The position numbers are program-made. A stretch of 36,025 nucleotides of DNA from IMG/VR virus record IMGVR_UViG_2522572021_000002, positions 1-36,025 of that record; one strand, given 5' to 3'. Below, one piece after another: positions 7,681 to 10,600 of the stretch. Each line of letters starts with the position of its first letter. The first letter of the stretch is position 1. Source of the DNA: a virus (taxonomy: Duplodnaviria; Heunggongvirae; Uroviricota; Caudoviricetes).

Positions 7681-10600
7681 TGACCACTACAGCTGGCTGT
7701 TTTTTTCCTTAATAAGGCATCTGTAACTGAAACAATCCGCATATTGATAATATATTGACAGGCATCATTGCTGTCTGTGAAAAATAAGTCTCTACAAACA
7801 TATAAGGCCTTTTAGCCAGCGTCTTCTTTTTCAGGTCAGTCGCTGGCTTTTTTTATTATGCTGCCGGTGCATTTATCTCCAGCATCAGACTTTCTATCTC
7901 AACGCCATACGCTGCATTTTTTGTAACATCCGTCAGCGTCAGCGCATTCAGTCCCAGTGTCAGACTGTCTTTTATAACCTGGAATGCCGGGCCAGCCACT
8001 CCATTCAGTTTCGGAGTAACCGTGGCACTGCCGGCGGTGAACACCAGCTCCAGCGTCTGCCAGTCGTTACCGTAATCGCCGAACTCCCCCAGCTTCGTGT
8101 TTCCGGCTTTCCTGTGATGCATCAGATTCACTCTGCCGTCAGTGGTCTGAGTGAAGTACGACATCAGGAACGGATTACCGGTACCCGTCATCGCCACACC
8201 ATCAGGAACGGGAGCATCCGTATACAGATAAATCCCCAGCCCGAACTGATTGTTGGTCAGTGCGCCTGACAGGCGGAACTTACAGGTCAGTCTGCCGCCC
8301 TGTGTCAGCAGGGTAATTGCGTCATCCACCGGATGCGTCAGGGACCAGGTTTTATTGCTCTGCTTGGCGATCTTAAATACACCATCTGACAACTGAATTC
8401 CGCCATCCTTAATGCTCCAGCCCTGCGCAGCAGCCTCTCCGGCTGCCGGCAGCAGGGAGATTGTGCGAACGGACGTATCTGCAGACGGACCCGATGGCGT
8501 GTTGCCGCCGGGCGAGGGTTTGATTTCCGGTGCCTTACCACTGATGAAGGCTGAGGTGCGCCCGGCTGCGTTCAGAATAGCGGTTGCCAGACGATCCGGA
8601 ATAATGCTCCTGCGCGCCCATGAACTGAAATGTGTCGGGCGGTTTGATGATACCTGGTTTCCATTCGTTCTCGATGCCGCACCGTAATATCCTGATGCCG
8701 GAATATCCGGATCTTCTGCCGGCGCGTTAGTGGCGGTATTGACGCCGTTACCATCTGTCATGAAGGGCACAAAATAAACGCCCTCACTCTCCCTGTTTTT
8801 ATACCCGCCGTACACGGTGTCGTACTGGGTAGCGTATGTATTTTTCCAGTAATACGTCGTGTCACCACAAACCCACGGCACATCTGCAGCACTGCCACCA
8901 TGGCACTGCGCGTTAAACACGGAGAGGTCAGCACGAAACTGTGTCAGCATGGCTGTAAACAGCGCAGGTTGCTGTGCGTGGGTGGCGGCGCTCATGTCAA
9001 ACTCACCCTGCATCCAGCAGACGGCCAGCAGAACGTTTTTGGGATTTTTCTGCAATGCCGCTTTTGTGCGGGAAATCAGATCCTGATATAACGGCTTGCC
9101 CCCGTTACTTTATTCGTACCCCTTATAATGGGGTGTTAGCCAGCCAGACCCGGCATGATTACTGCCCCCAGTCGTCCATGATCCGGGGGGTGATGTCACC
9201 GGGTCTGGTGGGGCGCTGGTAACCGCTAATAGGGGTCAGGTCAGGCACTTTTGCCGGGACCGTCTGTAACGTGGATGCCGGTACCTGCTCCCCGTGGTTA
9301 TCTGGTTAACCCATATACAAGGGAGACAGAATGACCGAATCCAGCGATTACGAATCCGTCCAGGTCTTTATCGGCGTTGATGTCGGTAAAGATACGCATC
9401 ACGCTGTAGCCATTAATCGTTCAGGTAAACGCCTGTTCGATAAAGCATTACCCAACGACGAAAACAAACTCAGGTCGCTAATATCTGACCTGAAACAACA
9501 TGGTCAGATACTGCTGGTTGTTGATCAGCCAGCTACCATCGGTGCGTTACCTGTCGCCGTTGCCCGCTCAGAAGGAGTCCTTGTCGGATACCTCCCTGGA
9601 CTGGCCATGCGCCGCATAGCCGACTTACACGCCGGTGAAGCTAAAACTGATGCTCGTGACGCTGCCATCATTGCCGAAGCTGCCCGTACCCTGCCTCACG
9701 CGCTACGCACGCTGAAACTGGCTGACGAGCAAATCGCCGAACTCTCCATGCTCTGCGGCTTCGATGATGATCTTGCCGCACAGACAACGCAGGCCAGCAA
9801 CCGTATCCGCGGCCTTCTGACCCAGATACATCCGGCACTGGAGCGCGTTCTCGGTCCGAGACTTGATCACCCGGCGGTACTCGATCTTCTCCAGCGATAT
9901 CCCTCACCAGAAAAACTCGCTTCGCTGGGTGAGAAGAAGCTGGCAGCCCAGCTCTGCAAACTTGCGCCTCGTCTGGGTAAACGCCTTGCAGCAGACATAG
10001 CTCAGGCACTGGCCGAACAAACCGTCGTCGTTCCCGGCACGAATGCCGCTGCCGTAGTACTGCCACGTCTGGCACTCCAGCTCATCACGCTGCGTAAGCA
10101 AAGAGACGAGGTGGCGCTTGAGGTAGAACAGCGAGTTCTTGCTCACCCTCTTTATCCGGTCCTGACCAGTATGCCCGGAGTCGGTGTCAGGACCGCAGCC
10201 AGACTCCTCACCGAGGTCGCCTGCCGCGCCTTCGCCTCTGCCGCACATCTCGCTGCTTATGCTGGCCTTGCGCCGGTAACTCGGCGATCCGGCTCGTCAA
10301 TACGCGGTGAGCATCCCTCGCGACGGGGTAATAAAGCTCTCAAACGGGCGTTGTTCCTGTCGGCCTTCGCCGCGCTCAGGGATCCGCTCTCCAGGGCTTA
10401 CTACACCCGCAAAATGAGTCAGGGAAAACGACACAATCAGGCGCTTATCGCCCTGGCGAGACGACGCTGCGACGTTCTGTTCGCCATGATGCGCGACGGG
10501 ACTTTTTATACCCCGCAGGCGTCATAACATGCTTGACAACTTAATAGGGGCACCCCCCAGCGTGCCGAATCCTGACTGGCCCCCGTGGACTCGCTGAATG

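Follow-up and report, generated by a model that had tools for sequence, protein, structure and literature searches.

A predicted bridge RNA in the left end of ISEc20, an IS110-family insertion sequence that inserts into oligo-C tracts

How does the insertion sequence ISEc20 choose its target, and what is encoded in the long end that precedes its recombinase gene? The question is raised by the IMG/VR virus record IMGVR_UViG_2522572021_000002 (Caudoviricetes), analyzed here over its positions 1 to 36,025 (the window), in which a copy of ISEc20 interrupts a nanS-p gene. An initial annotation, made from the sequence alone, had described an IS110-family element with a DEDD transposase that splits nanS-p without target duplication, and had proposed that the long non-coding end upstream of the transposase encodes a guide RNA specifying the observed target. 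Our analysis agrees with this description on each of these points. We consider it very likely that the left end of ISEc20 (9103-9330) encodes a bridge RNA of ~175 nt on the + strand (about 9117-9292), which guides the element's own DEDD/Ser recombinase. This reading is built on the anatomy of the left end, the covariation of its helices, the complementarity of its guide segments, and the target preference of the element, all of which are directly observed.

The region 9050-10620 of the window is 100% identical to loci in Escherichia coli O145:H28 genomes, where RefSeq places an "IS110-like element ISEc20 family transposase" between two gene halves. According to our reading of the junctions, the body of ISEc20 extends from 9103 to 10550 on the + strand (1448 bp), beginning with CGTTAC and ending with AATAGGGG. 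The split gene codes for a SASA-family carbohydrate esterase of the nanS-p type (DUF1737/DUF6645 in RefSeq), whose halves are found on either side of the element as ORFs (open reading frames) 10506-11156 and 7856-9055, both on the - strand. ISEc20-like sequence is present in 2,102 of 5,426 complete E. coli genomes, at a median of two places per genome.

The recombinase gene (9331-10527, + strand) is intact and encodes a protein of 398 amino acids composed of a DEDD RuvC-like domain and a Tnp domain, with matches to the Pfam families PF01548 (DEDD_Tnp_IS110, 6.9e-49) and PF02371 (7.3e-22). When aligned with the IS621 recombinase, to which it is 29% identical, it conserves the residues at D11, D102, D105, and the SGSS serine motif of IS621, with its D65 opposite E60. 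The non-coding ends are 228 nt long on the left (9103-9330) and 23 nt long on the right (10528-10550). ISEc20 therefore shows the features of the IS110 group: the recombinase domains, a long left and a short right end, sequence-specific insertion, and no duplication beyond the core. The IS1111 group (IS4321, IS5075, ISEc11) has the same recombinase family and RNA-guided site choice. Its members carry 7-17-bp sub-terminal inverted repeats, and their RNA lies in a long right end, which ISEc20 does not have, as its right end of 23 nt is too short for an RNA of such size.

Taken as a single sequence, the left end has a folding energy of -101 kcal/mol (z = -2.98). We aligned the left ends of 62 distinct homologues (73-99% identity at the protein level) found in Enterobacteriaceae, Burkholderiales, Oxalobacteraceae, Steroidobacter, and Microbacteriaceae. 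RNAalifold retrieved two long helices from this alignment. Base pairs were counted on a hand-written structure in which the putative guides were left unpaired. Among the 62 homologues, 97.0% of the cells form a standard pair; sliding the partners lowers this figure to 27-52%. Eighteen of the 37 pairs are altered on both sides (142 cells), compared with 12.5 ± 1.7 pairs in shuffles, and the covariation score is 0.289 versus 0.047-0.090 with slid partners, a value reached by none of 500 shuffles.

The left end thus displays the 5' hairpin and the two conserved stem-loops typical of bridge RNAs. The 5' stem-loop (9117-9135, + strand) has the stem UACCCC/GGGGUG and the loop UUAUAAU, and it folds in the large majority of 52 distinct homologue sequences even though the stem sequences differ. 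The target-binding stem-loop (9143-9209, + strand) is made of an outer helix (9143-9153/9199-9209), an inner helix (9156-9159/9195-9198), and a cap (9171-9173/9180-9182). Its 15 helix pairs are formed in 99.1% of the cells, with six pairs altered on both sides. The perfect 10-bp inverted repeat enclosing 45 nt that had been noticed in the initial annotation belongs to this stem-loop (9144-9153/9199-9208). The donor-binding stem-loop (9211-9292, + strand) comprises the outer helices 9211-9216/9287-9292, 9218-9220/9283-9285, and 9223-9225/9279-9281, and a cap hairpin within 9236-9262. Its 12 outer pairs are formed in 97.3% of the cells, eight of them being altered on both sides, as are four of the seven pairs of the cap. 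G-U pairs are many and conserved, and the same pairs are A-C mismatches on the opposite strand. These conserved G-U pairs point to a structure that belongs to an RNA read from the + strand.

Four segments in the two internal loops match the DNA on which the recombinase would act, and all four lie on the same loop sides and have the same strand senses as in IS621. On the 5' side of the first loop, the left target guide (LTG, ACUGCCCCC, 9161-9169, + strand) has the sense of the left flank and core. All of it is found at the left junction of the copy inserted in an rtcB gene (ACTGCCCCC), and eight of its nine bases match the left flank in the window. On the 3' side of the same loop, the right target guide (RTG, GGGGGGUG, 9185-9192, + strand) is antisense to CA followed by CCCCCC, and its reverse complement CACCCCCC is found exactly at 10551-10558. 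In one homologue (L063), a compensatory change is observed, the RTG being GGGGUG and the right flank CACCCC. Within the target guides, demonstrable use is limited to the part that corresponds to the C run.

The second loop faces the ends of the element itself. The left donor guide (LDG, CUAAUAGGGG, 9226-9235, + strand) reads in the sense of the right-end terminus; by our reading, nine of its ten bases are those of 10541-10550. This terminus, the left donor half-site (TTAATAGGGG, 10541-10550, + strand), repeats the LDG and covaries with it: an LDG ending in GGGA goes with a right end ending in GGGA in 11 loci, and GGGG goes with GGGG in nearly all others. The GGGA state occurs in two separate lineages, Duganella and the Pseudoclavibacter/Herbiconiux/Rathayibacter group, which have nearer relatives of the GGGG type (86-87% and 81-85% identity, respectively) than each other (about 79%). 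The right donor guide (RDG, GUAACGUG, 9266-9273, + strand), also in the second loop, is antisense to a core CA followed by CGTTAC. It is invariant in all homologues and forms an inverted repeat with 9100-9108. The right donor half-site to which it is complementary, CGTTAC at the start of the left end (9103-9108, + strand), is likewise invariant in the 62 homologues. Bridge RNAs are recognized by a target-binding and a donor-binding loop, and matches to both are present here. The claim that the left end encodes a guide RNA specifying the observed target is supported by the matches of the loops to flanks and ends in the strand sense of IS621 and by the covariation with the right end. In addition, the structure is conserved among homologues, and all copies have identical ends, with oligo-C at every regular junction sampled.

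The boundaries of the element were established by a comparison of copies inserted at several sites, among them yecD, an alpha/beta-hydrolase gene, and a gene of the rtcB family. The comparison also took in 80 homologous loci of other species, and every element in it starts with CGTTAC and finishes with ATAGGG[G/A], followed by CA. In the window, the left junction retains the left half of the target, CC (9099-9100) and the target core CC (9101-9102), on the + strand. At the right junction, the donor-derived core CA (10551-10552) is followed by the right target half CCCCCC (the two together spanning 10551-10558, + strand), as deduced from the empty alleles and the right-junction logo. The insertion therefore adds 1450 bp (1448 + 2) to a C10 tract, with no duplication beyond the 2-nt core. 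As predicted, an uninterrupted C10 allele of nanS-p exists (GGCTTGCCCCCCCCCCAGCG, 100% identity over 89 nt), and 38 records match the uninterrupted-allele query with at least 99% identity. This empty allele reads GGCTTGCC-CC-CCCCCCAGCG. The occupied site in the rtcB-type gene is matched exactly by its empty allele, GACTGCC-CC-CCCCCCCGCG (C11), and the empty alleles of the alpha/beta-hydrolase gene have C9 or C15 tracts without an A. Some nanS-p paralogues read CCCA[T/C]CCCCC and do not fit the occupied site. They had suggested an alternative boundary, in which the A of the right junction would come from the target, with a target core CA and a donor core CC. This alternative was ruled out by the absence of an A from the rtcB-type and alpha/beta-hydrolase empty sites and by the existence of the exact C10 allele of nanS-p.

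We then collected 54 distinct left and 33 regular right ISEc20 junctions from viral and metagenome contigs. All of them (54/54 and 33/33) fall in an oligo-C tract. The junction logo contains information only at positions -4 to -1 and +1 to +8, and all of these are C except +2. As the information is confined to the C run and the empty sites are exact, the natural target of ISEc20 is an oligo-C tract of ~10 bases. The targeted tracts are not equally long in all strains, C9 to C15 being one example, and some are broken by a T or an A. The genes that host them (rtcB-like, alpha/beta hydrolase, yecD, and nanS-p) are often annotated as frameshifted, even without ISEc20.

The target preference is not restricted to ISEc20. 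Elements with 73-82% identical recombinases from Burkholderiales, Oxalobacteraceae, Steroidobacter, and Microbacteriaceae (Actinobacteria) have the CGTTAC and ATAGGG[G/A]-CA ends, the guides, and the oligo-C target in common with it. These shared features indicate that one predicted bridge RNA specificity has spread across phyla.

The core dinucleotide is not the same at the two junctions of the window, being CC on the left (9101-9102) and CA on the right (10551-10552). Left junctions have CC in about 93% of the sites and CA in none of the 54. Among 40 distinct right junctions, 29 have CA and 11 have CC, and the idea of a right core that is always CA was rejected on this wider sample. Judging from the invariant UG of the RDG and from the junctions in which the right end (RE) is followed by CA-CGTTAC, the donor core is CA, the A being donor derived, and the usual target core is CC. 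ISEc20 does not have the same core in donor and target as IS621 does, a detail that does not speak against the mechanism.

Seven of the 40 distinct right junctions, from six loci (L012/L013 from 2722 onward, L095, L103, L118, L136, and L148/L191), read GGGG-CA-CGTTA[C/T] and then continue into unrelated DNA. The origin of such junctions can be traced upstream of mdtA, where the empty locus (L092, 270-290 and 848-860) has a C5TC5 target 570 bp upstream of a native sequence in which TTCCG is followed by CGTTACCTCA. From this layout, the right end of the mdtA copy appears to have recombined with a pseudo left-end site, with deletion of the 570-bp interval. Another pseudo-site has the native context TATCC followed by CGTTAC. 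In addition, two more stretches beginning with CGTTAC are found in L063 (1087-1270), less than 180 bp upstream of that element's own left end, and may represent remnants or pseudo-sites.

Preprints of 2025-2026 propose top-strand insertion, single-strand circles, and half-match recombination for bridge recombinases. The pseudo-site junctions of ISEc20 suggest recombination directed by the donor guide alone, that is, a half-match. The occurrence of the A only at right junctions suggests a strand-biased outcome where the two cores differ and is the trace that would be expected of a product determined by the top strand, in line with these preprints; we regard it as a lead and not as a result. It is conceivable, if somewhat doubtful, that natural ISEc20 junctions record how bridge recombination runs in cells. 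If they do, the ISEc20 family would provide population-scale in vivo support for the single-strand and half-match models, and its bridge RNA would be one that targets a hypermutable homopolymer.

We also looked for a promoter that could drive expression of the RNA. The initial annotation had pointed out a TATAAT at 9124-9129 and a TTGACA at 10533-10538. Both hexamers are present, but they do not form one promoter. TATAAT is located in the loop of the 5' hairpin, 35 nt from TTGACA in the joined ends, and a scan of the integrated element detected no site resembling a sigma-70 promoter; we rejected TATAAT as the -10 for TTGACA. Moreover, many relatives, above all those from Actinobacteria, have no -10-like sequence in this loop, and TATAAT, with 14 occurrences in the window versus 13.4 expected, is uninformative by itself. 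The likely -10 is TACTTT (9106-9111, + strand), which follows TTGACA by 17 nt in the reconstructed junction of RE, core, and left end. The predicted -35 hexamer TTGACA (10533-10538, + strand) lies in the 23-nt right end, and 49 of 50 homologue junctions have TTGAC[AGT] at a constant distance from the end. The combination TTGAC[AGT]-17/18-TAC[TC][AT]T is present in the same proportion (49/50) of the reconstructed homologue junctions. TTGACA and TACTTT are thus predicted to constitute a junction promoter with a weak -10, in keeping with the junction promoter described for IS621. Across the left junction, a terminator scan reported a stem TAACGG...CCGTTA with a T-rich tail (9089-9107), formed from flank and element; one such call was found versus 1.3 expected, which is the chance frequency.

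By analogy with IS621, excision and joining of the ends would bring TTGACA of the right end and TACTTT of the left end together. The resulting promoter would transcribe the bridge RNA and, further on, the recombinase gene. With a transcription start just before the 5' hairpin, the RNA, if it ended with the second stem-loop, would measure about 175 nt and would consist of the 5' hairpin and the two stem-loops, the target guides jointly specifying the oligo-C tract of ~10 bases. The recombinase, guided by this RNA, would exchange strands just 3' of the 2-nt core. Transcription, RNA-protein binding, and catalysis by ISEc20 are in this scheme presumed from the IS621 precedent.

Several observations weigh against the bridge RNA interpretation or limit its reach. 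Rfam 15 contains no curated RNA family that can serve as a test: a search of 8800-10900 (E <= 10) returned chance matches only. This negative result is uninformative because the experimentally validated IS621 bridge RNA locus is likewise without a left-end match. Neither blastn-short nor nhmmer found sequence similarity between the left-end family and the IS621 bridge RNA. The C5 and G6 segments of the target guides are mutually complementary and paired in the minimum-energy fold, and their conservation alone could reflect an RNA helix. The variable bases located 5' of the C run in the LTG match the flanks 87 times across homologues versus 76.3 ± 5.9 after permutation (p = 0.044), and they are not reflected in the target logo of ISEc20; we do not claim them as flank specifiers. 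Furthermore, the LDG bases after GGGG do not spell the core, and the candidate -10 TACTTT agrees with the consensus at three of six positions by our count.

In a rival reading, the left end would be a mere 5' leader of the recombinase mRNA, controlling its translation or stability and having no guide role. The left end immediately precedes the ORF and has the same orientation, would be co-transcribed with it from the junction promoter, and carries a Shine-Dalgarno-like AAGGGAG at 9319-9325, and the pairing capacity of the C5 and G6 segments would suit such a leader. However, a leader explains neither the loop strand that has the sequence of the right-end terminus, with which it covaries in two lineages, nor the other loop strand, complementary to the left-end start. 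It gives no account of the RTG change mirrored in the flank of L063 or of the recombination of right ends with CGTTAC pseudo-sites. In addition, about 38 nt separate the structured part from the start codon, and the ribosome-binding site is left accessible. We therefore judge a leader without guide role to be quite improbable.

Marginally less probable still, the repeats could act as DNA, as sub-terminal binding sites of the recombinase consisting of internal copies of the ends. Indeed, the right-end terminus recurs in direct orientation at 9226-9235 and the left-end start in inverted orientation at 9266-9274, and the relatives of the IS1111 group have sub-terminal inverted repeats (PMC11208160). 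Binding sites on DNA do not account for surrounding helices that are kept by compensatory changes and G-U pairs, which are the signature of a single-stranded + strand RNA, and the mechanism established in the IS110 family for IS621 is RNA guided. Finally, hairpins and hexamers might arise by chance in a GC-rich non-coding end, as the chance frequency of TATAAT in the window and the moderate z-score of the single-sequence fold (-2.98) would allow. This we regard as next to impossible, since the helices are conserved and covary in homologues from two phyla and no shuffle reaches the observed values.

The bridge RNA interpretation also agrees with what is known of the family. In Supplementary Table 5 of Durrant et al. 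2024 (PMC11208160), the entry "ISSfl4 | LE | IS110 | ISEc20;ISSfl4" means that a left-end bridge RNA was already detected for the ISSfl4/ISEc20 cluster by the published model search. The bridge RNA of ISEc20 is therefore already known and represents an expected feature of the IS110 family, not a new kind of system; what is added here is the guide map, the oligo-C target, the difference between donor and target cores, and the pseudo-site junctions. In the searchable literature, we found no published description of the guides or of the oligo-C target of ISEc20, ISSfl4, or ISBma3. Some close relatives are named "IS110 family RNA-guided transposase" by NCBI. ISSfl4 from Shigella flexneri, ISBma3 from Burkholderia, and the founding IS110 from Streptomyces belong to the same ISfinder/Durrant cluster as ISEc20, and ISBma3-type proteins are ~80% identical to the ISEc20 recombinase. 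Within this cluster, ISEc20 has AAUAGGGG and its relatives GAUAGGGG or AAUAGGGG; the right end is TAATAGGGG in ISEc20 and CATAGGGG in the relatives.

The RNA predicted for ISEc20 resembles the bridge RNA of IS621 from E. coli (Durrant et al. 2024, PMC11208160; Hiraizumi et al. 2024, PMC11208158) in its length of about 175-177 nt, in its location in the long left end, ahead of the gene for a DEDD/Ser recombinase, and in the succession of a 5' stem-loop, a target-binding stem-loop, and a donor-binding stem-loop. In both, the 5' strand of a loop reads like the left half-site, and the 3' strand is complementary to the core and right half-site. The -35, a predicted one in ISEc20, lies in the right end, so that the promoter would be complete only after the ends have been joined. 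Conversely, the two recombinases are only 29% identical, that of ISEc20 having an insert of roughly 70 amino acids, and the RNAs have no detectable sequence similarity. The target is REP-like in IS621, whereas it is a homopolymeric C tract in ISEc20, which makes the target guides of ISEc20 mutually complementary, and the effective left target recognition of ISEc20 is ~4 bases. IS621 has a CT core in both donor and target, and its top strands are cleaved just 3' of this core; in ISEc20, the donor core is CA and the usual target core CC.

A very common insertion sequence of E. coli and Shigella thus carries a predicted bridge RNA that looks functional, and for which an explicit guide map can be given. 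By homing to oligo-C tracts inside genes, ISEc20 strikes sites that are already prone to frameshifts, in the present case a prophage nanS-p esterase gene. In genome annotation, an RNA gene should be entered for the 228-nt "non-coding" end. For the study of bridge recombinases, the element offers a natural case of differing donor and target cores and of frequent pseudo-donor recombination, both of which bear on the debate over strandedness and off-target activity.

The distal half of the interrupted nanS-p gene is closely followed in the window by another ORF (6937-7683, + strand), which, judged from its translation, we take to be an IS3-family OrfB integrase-core transposase. With this ORF close to ISEc20, the prophage region therefore appears to harbor at least two different insertion sequences.

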